A stretch of DNA of 39,471 nt from Escherichia phage vB_EcoM_SHAK9454: sequence record OR594184; one strand, written 5' to 3'. This document shows, piece after piece, positions 1 through 39,471 of this stretch. The stretch's first letter is position 1; the number at the start of each line of letters is the position of its first letter. The notes under the pieces are model-generated. The model ran no database searches. It was given only the letters and a program-made list of their open reading frames with translations, and was not told the DNA's origin. The position numbers and the translations under genes are program-made.

Positions 1-1731
1 ATGACTGCACGTATGAAGGAAGACTTCGTGTTCTTCATCTTCGTTCTCTGGAAAGCTCTTAGCCTTCCGGTTCCAACCCGCTGCCAGATAGATATGTGTA
101 AGAAGCTGGCTGCTGGGGATAATCGCCGCTTCATCCTTCAGGCGTTCCGTGGTATTGGCAAGTCGTTTCTGACCTGTGGTTTCGTGGTCTGGAAACTATG
201 GAACAACCCAGACTTGAAGTTCATGATTGTGTCGGCCTCAAAGGAACGAGCCGATGCTAACTCCATATTCATCAAGCGAATCATCGACCTCATGCCTCAG
301 CTTCAGGAACTCAAACCTAAGCAGGGACAGCGAGATGCGGTTATCAGCTTCGACGTTGGGCCAGCCAAGCCAGACCACTCACCTTCGGTTAAGTCCGTTG
401 GTATCACTGGTCAGTTGACTGGTAGTCGTGCTGACATCCTGATTGCCGATGACGTGGAGGTTCCAAACAACTCTGCTACTCAGGCTGCGAGAGACCGTCT
501 GTCAGAGCTTGTAAAAGAGTTCGACGCTATCCTGAAGCCGGGAGGTACAATCATCTATCTGGGCACTCCTCAGAACGAGATGACCCTGTACCGTGAGCTG
601 GAAGGTCGTGGGTACACCACTACTATCTGGCCCGCTCGTTATCCACGCGACAGGAAGGACTGGCAGTCTTACGGTGACCGTCTGGCTCCTATGCTTCAGG
701 CAGAGCTGGAAGAGGACCCTGAGTCCTTCTACTGGCGTCCTACCGATGAAGTACGATTCGATGATACAGACCTGAAGGAACGTGAGTTGTCCTATGGTAA
801 AGCTGGCTTCGCTCTACAGTTCATGCTTAACCCTAACCTGAGTGATGCCGAGAAGTATCCTCTGAAGCTCCGTGACCTTATCGTAGCAGACTTGGACCCA
901 GAGTCAAGCCCAATGGTCTACCAATGGTTGCCGAACCCTCAGAACAAGCGTGAGGACGTTCCTAACGTTGGACTCATGGGTGATTCCTACCATACGTATC
1001 AGACTGTAGGCTCTGCCTTCAGCGCGTACACTCAGAAGATTCTGGTCATTGACCCTAGTGGTCGTGGTAAGGATGAGACTGGCTACGCTGTTCTGTACCA
1101 GCTCAACGGCTACATCTTCGTGATGGAAGCTGGTGGTATGCGCGGTGGGTATGAGGACTCAACGCTGGAAGCACTGGCTAAGATTGGTCGTAAGTGGAAG
1201 GTCAACGAATACGTCATTGAGGGTAACTTCGGCGATGGTATGTACCTTGAGCTATTCAAGCCTGTAGCGGCCCGTATCCATCCTGCTGCTGTAACTGAAG
1301 TGAAGAGTAAGGGCCAGAAAGAACTCCGCATCTGTGACGTTCTGGAGCCTATCATGGGGTCTCACCGACTTATCGTTAACGCTGCTGCTATCGTCCAAGA
1401 CTACCAGTCGGCCTCTGATAAGGATGGTGTTCGTAACCCTATCTACTCTCTCTTCTACCAGATGACACGTATATCTCGCGAACGTGGAGCCTTGGCACAC
1501 GATGACCGACTTGATGCGCTGGCTATCGGTGTACAGTTCTTCGTTGAGTCTATGGCTAAGGATGCCAACAAAGGCGAACGTGAAGTAACTGAGGAGTGGC
1601 TGGAGGAACAGATGGAGAACCCACGGAAAGGCTTCGAGTCCATCCACACTGAGTTCTGGGACAATGGGGTCCGGGTAACTCACGATACGGACGACGAGCT
1701 GGGACTAGGGTCATACGTTACGTTCCACTAG
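1..1731 (+). CDS. Terminase large subunit (T7 gene 19-like), 3' portion; its 5' end is at 39439..39471 because the window is a rotated genome
   Basis: 576-aa ORF from window start; recalled T7 gp19 blocks ([57 protein letters not shown]); reading frame is continuous with the last 33 nt of the window. Confidence 0.95.
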
Positions 1732-1825: not shown

Positions 1826-1848
1826 ACTTAACTATCACTATAGGGAAG
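1826..1848 (+). promoter_or_regulatory. Phage RNAP promoter (phiOR-like, near right genome end)
   Basis: ACTTAACTATCACTATAGGGAAGA; matches the 11-member consensus TAAACTATCACTATAGG, +1 G at 1843. Confidence 0.8.
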
Positions 1849-2028: not shown

Positions 2029-2187
2029 ATGGCAAAGACCAAAGCTGTACTTAAAGCTCTGGCGACCAATCGAGCTACATACAGGTTTCTTGCTGCTGTT
2101 CTACTTGCTGCTGGCGCTACTGCTGGAAGTCAGTGGGTCGGGTGGGTCGAGACTCTCGTATGTTCTCTGGTCTCTCAGTGTAATTAA
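2029..2187 (+). CDS. Small hypothetical protein (52 aa), positionally like T7 gene 19.5
   Basis: ATG 2029 with AGGAGG 2013-2018 upstream; MAKTKAVLKALATNRATYRFLAAVLLAAGATAGSQWVGWVETLVCSLVSQCN, hydrophobic core; below the 60-aa cutoff of the ORF track. Confidence 0.4.
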   Translation: MAKTKAVLKALATNRATYRFLAAVLLAAGATAGSQWVGWVETLVCSLVSQCN

Positions 2188-2220
2188 CGCCGTAATGGTA
2201 ACAATCAACGAAAGCAAGAC

Positions 2221-2261
2221 CTAAGGTCAGTTAATAGCTGACGCTACTCTACTGACCTTAG
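2221..2261. repeat. Perfect 10-bp inverted repeat (CTAAGGTCAG / CTGACCTTAG) forming a hairpin near the right genome end
   Basis: Inverted repeat read directly: 2221-2230 and 2252-2261 with a 21-nt spacer. Confidence 0.6.
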
Positions 2262-2339
2262 CTACTGTAGTCAAGGACTTTAGGTAACACCTTAATAGAA
2301 GCTCACTTAGGGTCATCCTACTTATTGGTCTATCCTAGT

Positions 2340-2395
2340 GTCGCCTGACCTACGGTCCTTGACCTACAGTGGCTGTGGCCTACAGTAGTGACGAT
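2340..2395. repeat. Short CCTACAG-type repeats flanking the right terminal repeat
   Basis: gacctacgg / gacctacagtgg / gcctacagtagtg in close succession. Confidence 0.5.
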
Positions 2396-2423
2396 GAGTT
2401 TTGGACCAAAAGTTTGAGACCAC

Positions 2424-2616
2424 ATCTCACACTTCAAGAACCTCAAGTCTCCCCATAGGCCCTCTTTCAGTCCAGACCAAAGGCCCTACCCCTACCCGTG
2501 CCAGTCTATCATAAGGTTGGACAGATGGTCAAGACTTAAGGTCAACGATAGGCTGAGGCTATGGCTTAGGGAAGGACGATAGGTTGGGACTATGGGTCTT
2601 CTTTGAGTCTCTATCT
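2424..2616. repeat. Direct terminal repeat, right-end copy (193 bp)
   Basis: Identical to 2617..2809 by direct comparison; begins ATCTCACAC, similar to the T7 genome end TCTCACAG. Confidence 0.9.
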
Positions 2617-2809
2617 ATCTCACACTTCAAGAACCTCAAGTCTCCCCATAGGCCCTCTTTCAGTCCAGACCAAAGGCCCTACCCCTACCCGTGCCAGTCT
2701 ATCATAAGGTTGGACAGATGGTCAAGACTTAAGGTCAACGATAGGCTGAGGCTATGGCTTAGGGAAGGACGATAGGTTGGGACTATGGGTCTTCTTTGAG
2801 TCTCTATCT
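2617..2809. repeat. Direct terminal repeat, left-end copy (193 bp); genome left end
   Basis: Second tandem copy, offset exactly 193 bp from the first. Confidence 0.9.
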
Positions 2810-2960
2810 GTATAACCATAAGTCACAACCATAGGTCACAGCCTACCTCTCACAACCATAAGCCATAACCTACAGTCTCACTAACCTACAGTCTCACTAA
2901 CCTACAGTCTCAACCATAAGACACCAACACCTAAAGTCATAGACCTACAGTTAATAGACA
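2810..2960. repeat. Array of short direct repeats after the left terminal repeat
   Basis: AACCTACAGTCTCACT repeated about 3 times at 2867-2912; AACCATAAG at 2813, 2853, 2911; analogous to the T7 short repeats flanking its terminal repeat. Confidence 0.7.
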
Positions 2961-3062
2961 CAAGGCTATAGACTTAAGGTCTAAGACATGTTAGTCAAAG
3001 ACTATATCCTCTTACACCATGGGGCCGACGATAGCTTAATCAATATTATTTCAAATTACCTA

Positions 3063-3092
3063 TTGACTATAGGTCCAGACTATGGCCTAATA
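3063..3092 (+). promoter_or_regulatory. Possible host sigma70 early promoter (weak -10)
   Basis: TTGACT at 3063-3068 preceded by an AT-rich stretch; only poor -10 candidates (CCTAAT/CTAATA) 17-18 bp downstream. Confidence 0.25.
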
Positions 3093-3202
3093 GCTTCCGT
3101 CAACACGACACGGCAACAACCGGATAGTGAAGACGCCGGTCCGGTCCGGTTAAGTAGTCAGCCTGTAAGACATACGAACAACAGGCAACCGACAGAAAGT
3201 AG

Positions 3203-3232
3203 TTGACAGGCAGTAACGACTTAAAGTAATAT
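3203..3232 (+). promoter_or_regulatory. Candidate host sigma70 early promoter (A-promoter-like)
   Basis: TTGACA (3203-3208), 18-bp spacer, TAATAT (3227-3232); lies between the left terminal repeat and the first early gene. Confidence 0.45.
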
Positions 3233-3747: not shown

Positions 3748-4251
3748 ATGGAACGTAATGCTAACGCATACTATGAGCTGCTGGCTACAACCGTTGAGGC
3801 ATTTATCGAGCGTATTCAGTACGACCACCTGACTCAAGATGACGACTACAGCGCTGCGCTGCATGAGGTCGTAGACGGTCAGGTTCCACACTATTACCAC
3901 GAGATTTTTACGGTGATGGCTGCTGATGGTATAGACAACGAGTTCGAAGACTCTGGGATGATACCTGAAACCAAGGACGTAACGCGTATCCTACAAGCTC
4001 GCATCTATGAGGCACTTTATAACGACGTGTCTAATAGCTTGGATGTAGTCTGGTTTGAGGATGAAGAGGCAGACGAAGAGGATGAATATTGGGTAGTTGA
4101 CGCTAAAACAGGCGCAATAATTGTGCAAGCTGTAGCTCTTGAGGTCGCTACTGCATGTGCCAATGTTAACTATGCGGCAGGTCGCCACCTGAAGGTGGAA
4201 GACATCAATGATAACGTAGTGTTCGACCCTGCGGCTGAGGACTGCGAGTGA
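3748..4251 (+). CDS. ocr: Ocr-like DNA-mimic anti-restriction protein (T7 gene 0.3-like) with a ~50-aa C-terminal extension
   Basis: VPHYYHEIFTVMAADGIDNEFEDSGMIPETKDVTRILQARIYE matches the recalled T7 Ocr core; acidic tail EDEEADEEDEYW; ORF continues ~50 codons beyond; strong RBS GAGAGGA. Confidence 0.8.
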   Translation: MERNANAYYELLATTVEAFIERIQYDHLTQDDDYSAALHEVVDGQVPHYYHEIFTVMAADGIDNEFEDSGMIPETKDVTRILQARIYEALYNDVSNSLDVVWFEDEEADEEDEYWVVDAKTGAIIVQAVALEVATACANVNYAAGRHLKVEDINDNVVFDPAAEDCE

Positions 4252-5128: not shown

Positions 5129-5454
5129 TGAACAAGTCATACGGGATTAATCTGGTACACTCTATGGACGCAGAAATGAACATGTTAAGCCTACTGGCTA
5201 CCGGGTATCGTCACGGAACGTCAAGTCACACCGCACGTCAACAGCAGGAGCGGGACCGTGTACTTCAGGCACGACTTCGGGCCGAGGGCCATAAGTACGA
5301 GCTGATGGGTCTGATATGTGGTGGACGACCAATAACCGACGATGGTAAACTTCTGGTATCAGGCTGGAAGGCGATAGACCAACGGTCATCCATCAAGCAC
5401 ACGACACATGGTGACTTCAGCCATCTTCACGCTAACCCACTGATATGCAAGTAA
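5128..5454 (+). CDS. Hypothetical early protein (108 aa) at the position where T7 has gene 0.7
   Basis: ORF whose ATG overlaps the upstream stop (TAATG); no kinase motifs seen. Confidence 0.6.
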   Translation: MNKSYGINLVHSMDAEMNMLSLLATGYRHGTSSHTARQQQERDRVLQARLRAEGHKYELMGLICGGRPITDDGKLLVSGWKAIDQRSSIKHTTHGDFSHLHANPLICK

Positions 5455-5459
5455 TTATG

Positions 5460-5482
5460 ACTTAACTATCACTATAGGACTC
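5460..5482 (+). promoter_or_regulatory. Phage RNAP promoter immediately upstream of the RNA polymerase gene
   Basis: ACTTAACTATCACTATAGGACTC, +1 G at 5477; leader 5477-5551 contains direct repeats AAGTGAAAGAC x2 and GACTTTAAGT x2. Confidence 0.75.
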
Positions 5483-11589: not shown

Positions 11590-12288
11590 ATGGCTAAAGA
11601 GCAACTGAAGACTTTCACCACTCCGGTAGCTGGTATCGTTGAGCCTTACGCATGGCTGAACAAAGCAGACACCAAGTTTAACGAGCGTGGTGAGCATAAG
11701 GTTAACCTGACATTCGACCTGAGCAACCATAAGGTCCGTAAGATGATTGATGTCTTACAGAAGATTCACGACGATGCGTATGCAAAAGCACTCGCAGACC
11801 ACGAGAAGAACCCACCTCAGGTTCAGCGTGGCAAGAAGCCTATTGAACCACGAGAAGGCGACATGCCGTGGATTGAGAATGGTGACGGTACTGTTACCCT
11901 TAAGTTTAAATGCTTTGCGTCTTACCTGAAAGACGGCAAGTCCGAGCCTATCGTATTACGGTTCTACGACACCGATGCTAAACTCATCCGTGACGTCCCG
12001 AATATCTGCGCTGGGTCTAAGCTGAAGGTCAAGTTTAAAGTCCTGCCGTTCAAGTGGAACGCTGCGACTGGTGCAAGCGTTAAGCTTCAGCTTGAGTCCT
12101 GCCTTCTGGTAGAACTGAAGGAGTGGAAAGGCGATGGTGCTGGTGGCGATGGTGGCTGGGGTGATGATGAAGACCTTGGTACTGGCTACAAAGCGTCAAC
12201 CGTTGGTGACTTCGGTGACGATGACTTCGGTGACGATGGTTCCGAAGGTGGTGACGACTCCAACTCTGGTGGCGATTACGACTTCTAA
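11590..12288 (+). CDS. Single-stranded DNA-binding protein (T7 gene 2.5-like)
   Basis: 232 aa, same length as T7 gp2.5; acidic C-terminal tail ending DYDF; GKKP..EGDMP and VKLQLES blocks. Confidence 0.92.
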   Translation: MAKEQLKTFTTPVAGIVEPYAWLNKADTKFNERGEHKVNLTFDLSNHKVRKMIDVLQKIHDDAYAKALADHEKNPPQVQRGKKPIEPREGDMPWIENGDGTVTLKFKCFASYLKDGKSEPIVLRFYDTDAKLIRDVPNICAGSKLKVKFKVLPFKWNAATGASVKLQLESCLLVELKEWKGDGAGGDGGWGDDEDLGTGYKASTVGDFGDDDFGDDGSEGGDDSNSGGDYDF

Positions 12289-36111: not shown

Positions 36112-38292
36112 ATGTCCACGATTACACAATTCCCTTCAGGAAACACTCAGTACAGGATAGAGTTCGACTACCTAGCCAGAACGTTTGTTGTTGTTACGCT
36201 GGTGAATAGCTCTAACCCTACCCTGAACCGTGTACTGGAAGTTGGTCGAGATTACCGATTCCTTAATCCAACGATGATTGAGATGTTGGCTGACCAATCA
36301 GGTTTCGACATCGTTCGTATTCACCGTCAGACTGGAACTGACTTAGTGGTAGACTTCAGGAATGGCTCAGTGTTGACAGCTAGTGACCTTACCAATTCAG
36401 AGCTTCAGGCTATCCATATTGCAGAAGAAGGTCGAGACCAAACGGTTGACTTAGCGAAGGAATATGCCGATGCTGCTGGTAGCTCTGCTGGCAACGCTAA
36501 GGATAGCGAGGACGAAGCACGCCGAATCGCTGCGAGTATCAAGGCAGCTGGTAAAATTGGCTATATTACCCGTAGCTCCTTCGAGAAAGGCTTCAACGTT
36601 ACAACATGGAACGAGGTCCTGCTATGGGAAGAGGATGGTGATTATTACCGCTGGGATGGTATGCTTCCAAAGAACGTTCCCGCTGGTTCAACTCCTGAAT
36701 CATCTGGTGGTATTGGGATGAGTGCGTGGGTTAGTGTTGGTGATGCGTCACTTAGAGCAAACCTGTCTGATAGCGATGGCGCTAAATACATAGGCAGTGG
36801 AGAAAGGACATTACTTGAGCACAACAATGATGTTTTGCACTCAAAAGACTTTCCAACACTGCAGGCAGCTATAGATGCATCTTTGCAAAAAAATGATCTA
36901 CTGGTGTCTCCTGGCAATTATACTGAAAAAGTTACTATTGGAAACGCGCAGTTAAAAGGTGTTGGCGGGGCCACGGTACTAAAAACTCCGGCAGACTTTA
37001 CAAACACTGTTCAGGTTAATTTAGCTACACCTCATTGGCAATTCCGCCATAGTGGTGGTTTTGCTATAGATGGTTCCGGGACAACCGGGGCCGTAGGTAT
37101 TAGTTTTGACCCGTCAGACCAATATTCCGGGCGTCATAATTTTAGTGATTTATACATCCACAACATCAACAAGGCCATTCAGAAGCCTTCCGGGAACATC
37201 GGCAATACGTGGAGAAGTATTGGGGTATCTACGTGTGATTGGGGGTATTACGCGATTAGTGGCTCGGAGATGCATTGCGGGGCCGATACCCTCTACAATA
37301 TCCACTTCGACGGCATCTCCACCTATGCCGTCTACCTAAACGGTACTGTCGATAACGGTGGGATAGGCGGATGGTGGCTTAAAGACTCCATTATTGAGGC
37401 TTCCGGAGGCGGCGGGATATACTTAAAAAGCAAATCGGGTGACTGTCCTACATCTCCATGCGGGGTATCCAATGTATGGATGGAAGCTATTGCAACATCA
37501 TCGGCTGTTCAGGTAGATGGCGTGGCGCAAAAACCGCGAGTTCTCAAGTTGGTAGACACCGCGATATTCTTTGCTGAGTATTCTTATCTCAACAACATCG
37601 AGCTATCCAACTCCAACTTAGTAACTTATGGTTGCCGTTTTGACAACGCTGATGGTAATCAGGATATTGTAGTGGATGCACAAAGCACCATTGTAGCCCA
37701 CGATGTGTATTTAAACGGCAGTTCTGGAAAGGACGTTATTGTAGAGTCTGTCGCGTCGCAATCCGCAACGATAGCCACTACAAACTTGTCTCTACGAGGA
37801 AATTTAACAAGGGGACGAGTGTTTAATACGCCGACGGGGAATAAGTTAAAAGCTATCACATTTGACTCAGGTAGCCATAATTTTTCTGGTAGCGGTACCG
37901 TTAACGGTTCGACTGTATCTGACGGACTTCACGCCGCTACATGTACCGAATTTTCATTCCCTGGGTCCGGTTTATATGAAATGGTAGCGTCAAGAACGAC
38001 ACTTACATCCGGTAGATGGTACGTGTGGGGCGTCAACTCTCGCCTCCAATCAGGAACAGCAGATGTGAGTATAACGTTAGGTATTACTATGGGTAGCGTT
38101 TATACTAAGTCTGGTGAGTGGATTAGCACTTTCGGTGTAGGAAAGGCATCTACCACTGGCACTGTAGCGCTATACGTTTCCACAGGAGGAGGTTCGGGAG
38201 CTACGGTCAGATTCAGTGACTTTTTCATCGCTGAGTTTACGACGCAAGCTCAGGCTTTATCTTTCGCCAATTCAAGGATGTCGTTATCATAA
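36112..38292 (+). CDS. Tail fiber / tailspike: T7 gp17-like N-terminal adaptor fused to a beta-helix (depolymerase-like) domain
   Basis: N-terminus YRIEFDYLARTFVVVTL...RDYRF...VDFRNGSVLTASDL...IHIAEEGRD is T7 gp17-like; remainder is G/N/S/T-rich with repetitive rungs; GC and codon usage drop from about 36780. Confidence 0.85.
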   Translation: MSTITQFPSGNTQYRIEFDYLARTFVVVTLVNSSNPTLNRVLEVGRDYRFLNPTMIEMLADQSGFDIVRIHRQTGTDLVVDFRNGSVLTASDLTNSELQAIHIAEEGRDQTVDLAKEYADAAGSSAGNAKDSEDEARRIAASIKAAGKIGYITRSSFEKGFNVTTWNEVLLWEEDGDYYRWDGMLPKNVPAGSTPESSGGIGMSAWVSVGDASLRANLSDSDGAKYIGSGERTLLEHNNDVLHSKDFPTLQAAIDASLQKNDLLVSPGNYTEKVTIGNAQLKGVGGATVLKTPADFTNTVQVNLATPHWQFRHSGGFAIDGSGTTGAVGISFDPSDQYSGRHNFSDLYIHNINKAIQKPSGNIGNTWRSIGVSTCDWGYYAISGSEMHCGADTLYNIHFDGISTYAVYLNGTVDNGGIGGWWLKDSIIEASGGGGIYLKSKSGDCPTSPCGVSNVWMEAIATSSAVQVDGVAQKPRVLKLVDTAIFFAEYSYLNNIELSNSNLVTYGCRFDNADGNQDIVVDAQSTIVAHDVYLNGSSGKDVIVESVASQSATIATTNLSLRGNLTRGRVFNTPTGNKLKAITFDSGSHNFSGSGTVNGSTVSDGLHAATCTEFSFPGSGLYEMVASRTTLTSGRWYVWGVNSRLQSGTADVSITLGITMGSVYTKSGEWISTFGVGKASTTGTVALYVSTGGGSGATVRFSDFFIAEFTTQAQALSFANSRMSLS

Positions 38293-38992: not shown

Positions 38993-39442
38993 ATGCTCGA
39001 ATTTTTAAAGAGAGCGGCTCCGTGGTTACTTGCAGCAGTGATGTTTGCTGGTGGCTACCACACCGCTAACAATAAGTGGGAGGCTAAGGTAAATGAAGAA
39101 TACACCTCGAATCTTAAGGCATCGGAAGATACAAGGCTTGCTGTCCAAGCTGAAGTCAACAAAGTGTCCAAACGGTTTCAGGACGAAATGTCCTCGCTGG
39201 AAGGCAGCACTGATAGGATTATTGCTGATCTTCAGTCTGACAATAAGCGGCTGCGCATCCGAGTCAAGCCCACGAGTGGAACCACGCAAAGTGACGGTCG
39301 ATGCGTCATTGATGACTACGCCGAACTTGATGAACGAGATGCTAAACGTCTTATCGCCATCGGAGTGAAAGGAGACAAGTGGATTAAGGCCCTTCAGGAC
39401 ACTGTGAGAGCCTTACAGCAAGATAAGGAGGTGACGCATTGA
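38993..39442 (+). CDS. Rz-like i-spanin (T7 gene 18.5-like)
   Basis: 149 aa; N-terminal transmembrane segment APWLLAAVMFAGGY then charged coiled-coil-like region. Confidence 0.85.
   Translation: MLEFLKRAAPWLLAAVMFAGGYHTANNKWEAKVNEEYTSNLKASEDTRLAVQAEVNKVSKRFQDEMSSLEGSTDRIIADLQSDNKRLRIRVKPTSGTTQSDGRCVIDDYAELDERDAKRLIAIGVKGDKWIKALQDTVRALQQDKEVTH
39093..39368 (+). CDS. Rz1-like o-spanin lipoprotein nested in the +1 frame of Rz (T7 gene 18.7-like)
   Basis: Signal and lipobox ALIGLLLIFSLTISGC; the true start may be an internal codon of this frame. Confidence 0.6.
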   Translation: MKNTPRILRHRKIQGLLSKLKSTKCPNGFRTKCPRWKAALIGLLLIFSLTISGCASESSPRVEPRKVTVDASLMTTPNLMNEMLNVLSPSE

Positions 39443-39471
39443 GTAAAGACTTAGTGGCGCGTCAGGCGCTA
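39439..39471 (+). CDS. Terminase large subunit, 5' end (continues at 1..1731)
   Basis: AAGGAGG 39425-39431, then TTG 39439 (or GTG 39454) in a frame that runs off the window end in register with position 1. Confidence 0.7.
   Translation, partial: MSKDLVARQAL

Follow-up and report, generated by a model that had tools for sequence, protein, structure and literature searches.

A 193-nt tandem in the record of a K1F-like coliphage very probably joins the two terminal repeats of a linear genome

Introduction

The sequence record of Escherichia phage vB_EcoM_SHAK9454 (OR594184) contains two copies of a 193-nt sequence lying head to tail, which raises the question of whether such a tandem is a heritable feature of the phage, a junction taken from replicating DNA, or the two ends of a linear genome brought together in the record. 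Hereafter, the window refers to the whole 39,471-nt stretch that was analysed, and all coordinates are 1-based on it.

Results and discussion

Genome type and opening point of the record

A K1F-like phage related to T7 (genus Kayfunavirus, Autographiviridae) is represented in the window by its complete genome. Of this genome, a 24-kb piece was 94-95% identical to many Kayfunavirus records across 90-95% of its length, none of these records being identical to it, and the + strand carries all large ORFs in a T7-like gene order (terL, early genes with ocr, RNAP and, further on, tail fiber, small terminase and spanin). The ATG at position 1 is the automatically called terL start, as used in the K1F RefSeq record. 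However, gene 19 likely starts at the TTG at 39439, which, as in EcoDS1, follows AAGGAGGT (a strong Shine-Dalgarno sequence) and shares bases with the TGA stop of the spanin gene (39440-42), and rotation of the record at the called ATG thus left 11 gene 19 codons behind at the opposite end of the window. The initial annotation placed the opening inside gene 19; this holds in the narrow sense that the window starts 33 nt inside the gene as curated in EcoDS1, but the base at which it starts is the called terL ATG. When the last 400 nt of the window were followed by its first 400 nt, the sequence aligned unbroken to both EcoDS1 and K1F. Since tail and head are contiguous in these two phages, the window is a circular rotation. 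Its length equals 39,085 unique nucleotides plus 2 x 193.

An exact tandem in non-coding DNA

The copies at 2424-2616 and 2617-2809 are 100% identical across 193 nt, and Tandem Repeats Finder scored them as by far the strongest repeat in the window (score 772; period 193, 100% matches, 2.0 copies). Only one register is possible for the tandem (C at 2423 versus T at 2616; A at 2617 versus G at 2810), which together with the identity confirms the initial description of two copies abutting at 2616/2617. We found no third copy, as no 16-mer of the unit occurs elsewhere in the window on either strand, and chance cannot account for an exact tandem of this length. Only short ORFs without family hits overlap the repeat, which lies between gene 19.5 and the early promoters and gene 0.3, indicating that it is non-coding. 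One of these, a 63-aa ORF (2584-2775), crosses the join between the copies and is a product of the tandem arrangement alone, that is, a spurious gene call; the records of relatives already contain 'hypothetical protein' calls across the repeat. The features of the locus and of the opening point are listed in Table 1.

Table 1. Features at the tandem and at the opening point of the window, with the basis of each assignment
Feature	Coordinates	Strand	Basis or remark
Large terminase subunit (gene 19), from the first in-frame ATG on	1..1731	+	576 aa; phrog_38, E = 3.7e-131; point at which the record was re-opened
Phage-RNAP promoter phiOR	1826..1848	+	23/23 identical to the annotated phiOR of EcoDS1; predicted transcripts run rightward across the terminal repeat (TR)
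Homolog of gene 19.5 (52 aa), nearest gene to the right genome end	2029..2187	+	Maps exactly onto EcoDS1 gp19.5
Non-coding right-end flank with SRR-like heptamer array and nested inverted repeats	2218..2423	+	Heptamer density and folding
Repeat copy 1, predicted right-end TR of virion DNA	2424..2616	+	Alignment to TRs of relatives; TCTCAC from 2425
Probable artificial join of right and left ends (ATCT/ATC)	2613..2619	.	Pause octamer reads CTATCTAT here, not CTATCTGT
Repeat copy 2, predicted left-end TR of virion DNA	2617..2809	+	Alignment to TRs of relatives; A at 2617 is the extra base
Putative pause octamer CTATCTGT	2804..2811	+	8/8 identical to the 'concatemeric junction' feature of EcoDS1; unique on the + strand
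Non-coding left-end flank with SRL-like array, CCTACAG/CCATAAG-type short repeats	2810..2990	+	36.6 per kb
First host-RNAP early promoter, A1-like	3063..3099	+	Maps to EcoDS1 'host RNAP promoter' 469-505; TTGACT...TAATAG
Second host-RNAP early promoter	3203..3232	+	TTGACA, 18-nt spacer, TAATAT; 10/12 consensus; start maps to EcoDS1 609-647
Gene 0.3, ocr-like anti-restriction, early gene marking the left end of the genetic map	3748..4251	+	phrog_2568, E = 1.1e-51
First 11 codons of gene 19 (EcoDS1 curation)	39439..39471	+	TTG and Shine-Dalgarno context shared with EcoDS1 gp19

Relatives carry homologous terminal repeats

The 193-nt unit matched 226 Kayfunavirus-type phage records, in which the TR region is ~87-97% identical. 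In linear-deposited records with annotated or mapped ends, base 1 of the record corresponds to unit position 2 (TCTCAC), and the repeats align to positions 2-193. The exact TR lengths are 160 nt in T7, 178 in EcoDS1, 178 in K1F, 179 in Vec13, 179 in Penshu1 (PhageTerm) and 184 in SH3, those of T7, EcoDS1, K1F and Vec13 being computed exact prefix/suffix repeats, and on the window these repeats align to 2425-2612/2616. The records themselves label the sequence as 'terminal repeat' (EcoDS1), 'long terminal repeat' (Vec13) or 'direct terminal repeat predicted by PhageTerm' (Penshu1 and Peacock), and the two EcoDS1 annotations fall on 2425-2612 (right TR) and 2618-2805 (left TR) of the window. The TRs of T7, EcoDS1, K1F and Vec13 start with TCTCAC, have an A before the right copy, end in ...C(T/C)CT and are followed by ATCTGT after the left copy. 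The T7-like end sequence that had been noted at the start of the unit is thus present, but it begins at 2425 and not at the first base of the unit, since the A at 2424 precedes the right-hand repeat in all relatives. Judged by these alignments, the unit is a homolog of the T7-type short direct terminal repeat (Studiervirinae) and shares its mapped-end boundaries.

Multiple alignment showed that the unit is collinear with the TRs of relatives apart from a 10-nt insertion. This insertion, CCTACCCGTG, is present at 2491-2500 and 2684-2693, is seen relative to all aligned relatives, and partly repeats the preceding CCCTACC; the stretch homologous to the T7-type repeat (2425-2612) consequently measures 188 nt here versus 178 in EcoDS1 and K1F. 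The repeats of EcoDS1, K1F, Vec13 and Penshu1 share 88-91% identity with the unit and have matching flanks and landmarks, but are 178-179 nt long, end 4-5 nt earlier (CTCT/ATCT, the slash marking the boundary) and start with T rather than A; EcoDS1, K1F and Vec13 were deposited as linear records, and the right copy of Penshu1 was deliberately left unduplicated. Citrobacter phage SH3 (KU687349), of the same genus, has boundaries of the form TCTCAC...GAGTCTCTATCT followed by GTATAACC, so that its right edge equals 2616/2809, whereas its 184-nt TR lacks both the 10-nt insertion and the extra A and stands once at each end of a linear record. T7 itself (NC_001604) agrees in the TCTCAC start, in the A before the right end and in ...C(T/C)CT followed by ATCTGT, but its TR is 160 bp versus 193 (or 188-192) nt here and the interior has largely diverged.

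The surrounding landmarks follow the T7 layout

Similarity to T7 extends beyond the repeat, as both genomes have strand-specific CCTAAAG-type heptamer arrays on both sides, phiOR and gene 19.5 upstream, and host promoters and gene 0.3 downstream. Heptamers of the CCTACAG/CCTAAAG type reach a density of 17.9 per kb left of the tandem (2200-2423) and of 36.6 per kb right of it (2810-3000), compared with 1.0 per kb elsewhere, and they are strand-specific as in T7 (1/50 motifs in the region on the minus strand), which bears out the earlier remark that short repeat arrays flank the tandem as they do in T7. The left-end flank additionally contains tandem arrays (Tandem Repeats Finder) with a 27-nt period at 2823-2924 and a 16-nt unit repeated 2.9 times at 2866-2912. 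The right-end flank has a perfect inverted repeat (2221-2231/2251-2261) and an imperfect hairpin (~2260-2374), with a DNA fold of -30.1 kcal/mol (z = -3.0 versus shuffled controls). The perfect CTAAGGTCAGT inverted repeat also occurs in EcoDS1, and T7 has an inverted repeat ~190 nt to the left of its TR. Chung, Nardone and Hinkle reportedly described a 'hairpin intermediate' in T7 packaging in 1990, to which the inverted repeats of the right flank are possibly related.

A phage promoter scan of the window returned 10 matches, phiOR among them, all on the + strand, with 0.09 expected by chance. The putative class II RNAP pause/termination signal ATCTGTA occurs once, at 2806, and corresponds to ATCTGTT in T7; the seventh base that differs from T7 is the same in all aligned Kayfunavirus sequences. 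Judged by its motif, CTATCTGT is a member of the T7 RNAP class II pause/termination signal family. Among the early promoters, a simple sigma-70 scan recovered one host promoter only, and the remaining ones were positioned from their homologs in EcoDS1, whose third host promoter did not map onto the window. Unlike in T7, no phiOL-like phage promoter was detected in the window between the repeat and the first host promoter (3 mismatches allowed), and a phage promoter is found just upstream of gene 1 instead. This is a perfect phage-RNAP promoter (5456-5478) directly upstream of the RNAP gene, and 5432-5478 shares an extended similarity of 47 nt (83%) with the phiOR region (1798-1844). The curated EcoDS1 record also annotates a 'phi' promoter before the RNAP gene, making this arrangement normal for the genus; T7 has no phage promoter before gene 1.

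Copy number of the repeat at the junction

Related records in which the region is internal matched a 1,601-nt query over ~1,390-1,480 nt, in pieces, and this splitting and shortening indicates that they hold one TR copy there. A 100-nt query centred on the join was contiguous in OR594182.1 only; elsewhere its halves mapped to the two ends of a single TR. Scans of IMG/VR detected zero hits to the CTATCT-A-TCTCAC join as it stands in the window and zero hits to a blunt canonical CTCT-TCTCAC junction, while the native sequence from the right flank into the TR, used as a control, was found in 17 contigs, once in each. IMG/VR contig L019 is 39,278 nt long, which is exactly one repeat less than the window. 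We asked whether it was a separate assembly of this phage with a single copy, but its identity of 94% shows the agreement in length to be a coincidence.

OR594182.1 (vB_EcoM_SHAK7854; GenBank, UNVERIFIED, 'circular') is the only other record found with this join and is 93-95% identical overall. Like the window, it opens with the terL ATG; at 2424-2789 two TRs of 183 nt follow each other as an exact 183 x 2 tandem, bounded by A...ATCT as in the window. Its source paper, which covers vB_EcoM_SHAK9454 as a sibling Kayfunavirus, reports ONT rapid-kit reads, assembly with Flye --meta, polishing with Racon/Medaka/Pilon and annotation with Pharokka 1.4.1, without an analysis of termini. The feature table of this record is shifted by 2571 nt against its sequence: taken as listed, none of the features coincides with an ORF, every testable one is a clean ORF at +2571, and the same offset brings its terL back to position 1. 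The offset explains the UNVERIFIED status and implies at least two openings of one and the same circle, one of them within TR copy 1.

Origin of the tandem

Taken together, these results suggest that the tandem very probably consists of the left- and right-end TRs of a linear Kayfunavirus genome that was joined as a circle and re-opened at terL. The initial annotation had proposed such a re-joined, rotated linear genome with a terminal repeat at each end, and the proposal is upheld by the alignment of the unit to the TRs of relatives, by the contiguity of the window's end and start in EcoDS1 and K1F, and by the length of the record. The repeat itself is real, and its tandem arrangement is a bookkeeping artefact. 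We infer from the alignments that the physical ends of this phage's virion DNA lie at the repeat edges. In linear virion DNA, the left end would be formed by copy 2 followed by the sequence from 2810 on, and the right end by copy 1 with the sequence through 2423 ahead of it. Treating this linear TR-unique-TR molecule as a circle and cutting it at the terL ATG would place the right-end and left-end TRs head to tail.

In T7-type phages, concatemers are linked by one shared TR, which is duplicated at packaging (PMC5923468), and direct terminal repeats are produced by 3'-end extension at staggered nicks (PMC5557969); RNAP pausing at the concatemer junction (CJ) signal is also described in the literature. 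A native junction would thus hold one copy. The following steps are established for T7 and are transferred to this phage by homology. After replication, the TRs of successive genomes would pair, so that neighbouring genomes in a concatemer share one TR at each junction. Transcription from phiOR would cross gene 19.5, the right-end flank and the TR, and the phage RNAP would pause at the class II signal CTATCTGT at the right edge of the junction. Terminase (gp18/gp19) would then cut at the conserved A/TCTCAC and at or near CTCT/ATCT/GT, and 3'-end extension would duplicate the TR so that both daughter genomes receive a copy.

Several other origins of the tandem were weighed. A native junction assembled from replicative concatemeric DNA, which had been offered earlier as the alternative, would agree with the CJ octamer, the upstream phiOR and the flanking arrays, all of which mark the region as homologous to such a junction. 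However, T7-type concatemers share one TR, the second copy being made only in packaging (PMC5923468; PMC5557969), whereas two copies lie between the flanks here; the related records with an internal region have a single copy, none of the 17 IMG/VR contigs with the native flank-to-TR sequence has a TR-TR adjacency, and the conserved CTATCTGT is broken to CTATCTAT at the join. The concatemer reading is therefore barely tenable. A heritable tandem duplication, such as a terminal repeat of 386 bp or a duplicated internal segment beside the true end, could draw on the observation that short internal repeats make TR length vary among these phages (a 10-nt insertion in this phage; 10-12-bp repeats in Yersinia phages), but we consider it very improbable. 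A genuine duplication should have boundaries independent of the ends and recur in independently assembled relatives, which is not what was found: the boundaries are not arbitrary but lie 0-5 nt from where the genomes of relatives were mapped to end, the two copies do not differ at any base, the inner junction carries no intact right-cut/pause motif, and the only other such record comes from a pipeline that also rotated to terL.

Some facts nevertheless sit less well with the rotation account, namely the 5 nt by which the unit exceeds the T7/EcoDS1/Vec13/Penshu1-type repeat, the extra A at the join and the annotation origin of OR594182.1 inside TR copy 1, which implies that a TR-TR circle predates at least one rotation. 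The last two would be accommodated if the adjacency had already been present in the raw assembly, through end-to-end joining in vitro, chimeric long reads or circle closure by the assembler or a termini tool, given that the TR-TR circle of OR594182.1 existed before two different rotations and that the extra A resembles a terminal-A artefact (the SH3 authors discarded one, and KM02 starts with an extra T). Yet both the ONT rapid transposase kit and the Nextera libraries reported for OR594182.1 are ligation-free. A 193-bp overlap is also far below the long-read overlap thresholds of Flye, which counts against closure by the assembler. We regard an origin in the raw assembly as unlikely, and the adjacency would be non-biological in that case as well. 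It is quite improbable that the TR-TR adjacency exists in real DNA molecules, such as a packaging intermediate with the TR duplicated before the terminase cut and caught by long reads; such molecules would explain both the recurrence of the same CTCT-ATCT-A-TCTCAC in two independent SHAK-type assemblies and a sibling circle that predates its rotations.

Exact boundaries of the repeat

Compared with the T7/EcoDS1/Vec13/Penshu1-type repeat, the unit is longer by 5 nt (A on the left, ATCT on the right), and the candidate right boundaries are 2612 (the T7/EcoDS1 homolog) versus 2616 (SH3-type). For SH3, run-off Sanger sequencing of virion DNA located the ends, a polymerase-added terminal A being discarded (PMC4925675). 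Its TR ends in ...CTCTATCT, exactly like the unit, and among the relatives compared SH3 alone supports the +4 right boundary; the repeats of SH4, L029 and Vec13 end at CTCT or CCCT. The unit can thus be described as an SH3-type TR of 192 nt (TCTCAC...CTCTATCT, 2425-2616) to which the join adds a single A, and the natural A before the right-hand TR together with the extra A at the join gives the period of 193. The SH3 run-off data account for ATCT, leaving the single A alone over.

Kayfunavirus records differ by 0-5 nt in where their TRs end (KM02, PQ179042.1, with an extra 5' T; CR44b, +1; K1F, -1; SH3, +4), and this disagreement seems to combine terminal-A artefacts with possibly real cut-site differences. 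We also considered whether the 5 extra nt arose through microhomology (ATCT at both TR edges), but this did not deterministically reproduce CTCT-ATCT-A-TCTCAC in two phages; polishing of noisy contig ends failed in the same way, again for two phages. The right-end cut in this lineage might, as in SH3, lie 4 nt to the right of the T7/K1F cut and inside the RNAP pause motif.

Implications for phage biology and sequence databases

The repeat is a conventional T7-type terminal repeat and already known in kind. For biology, the analysis places the packaging ends of one more K1F-like coliphage and points to conservation of the full T7-type end architecture. For data quality, the record should be flagged as linear DNA shown as a circle, with a length that counts both repeats, and the join sequence is most probably present in no molecule. 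In phage databases, such artefacts bias statistics on genome length, ANI, DTR detection and repeats.

Other features of the window

The tail fiber gene (36112-38292, 726 aa) has an N-terminal part of 177 aa that is Kayfunavirus-type, while residues 178-726 (the C-terminal 76%) are 87% identical to fibers of Kagunavirus siphophages (e.g., Golestan), a relationship that the source paper of OR594182.1 describes for SHAK9454. The Kagunavirus-like part is also present in many LM33_P1-type Kayfunaviruses, and this mosaic structure indicates that a receptor-binding module was exchanged between phage families. Two further tandem repeats with a 15-nt period and ~2 copies each were detected at 12130-12159 and 12207-12238, near the 3' end of an ORF at 11590-12288.
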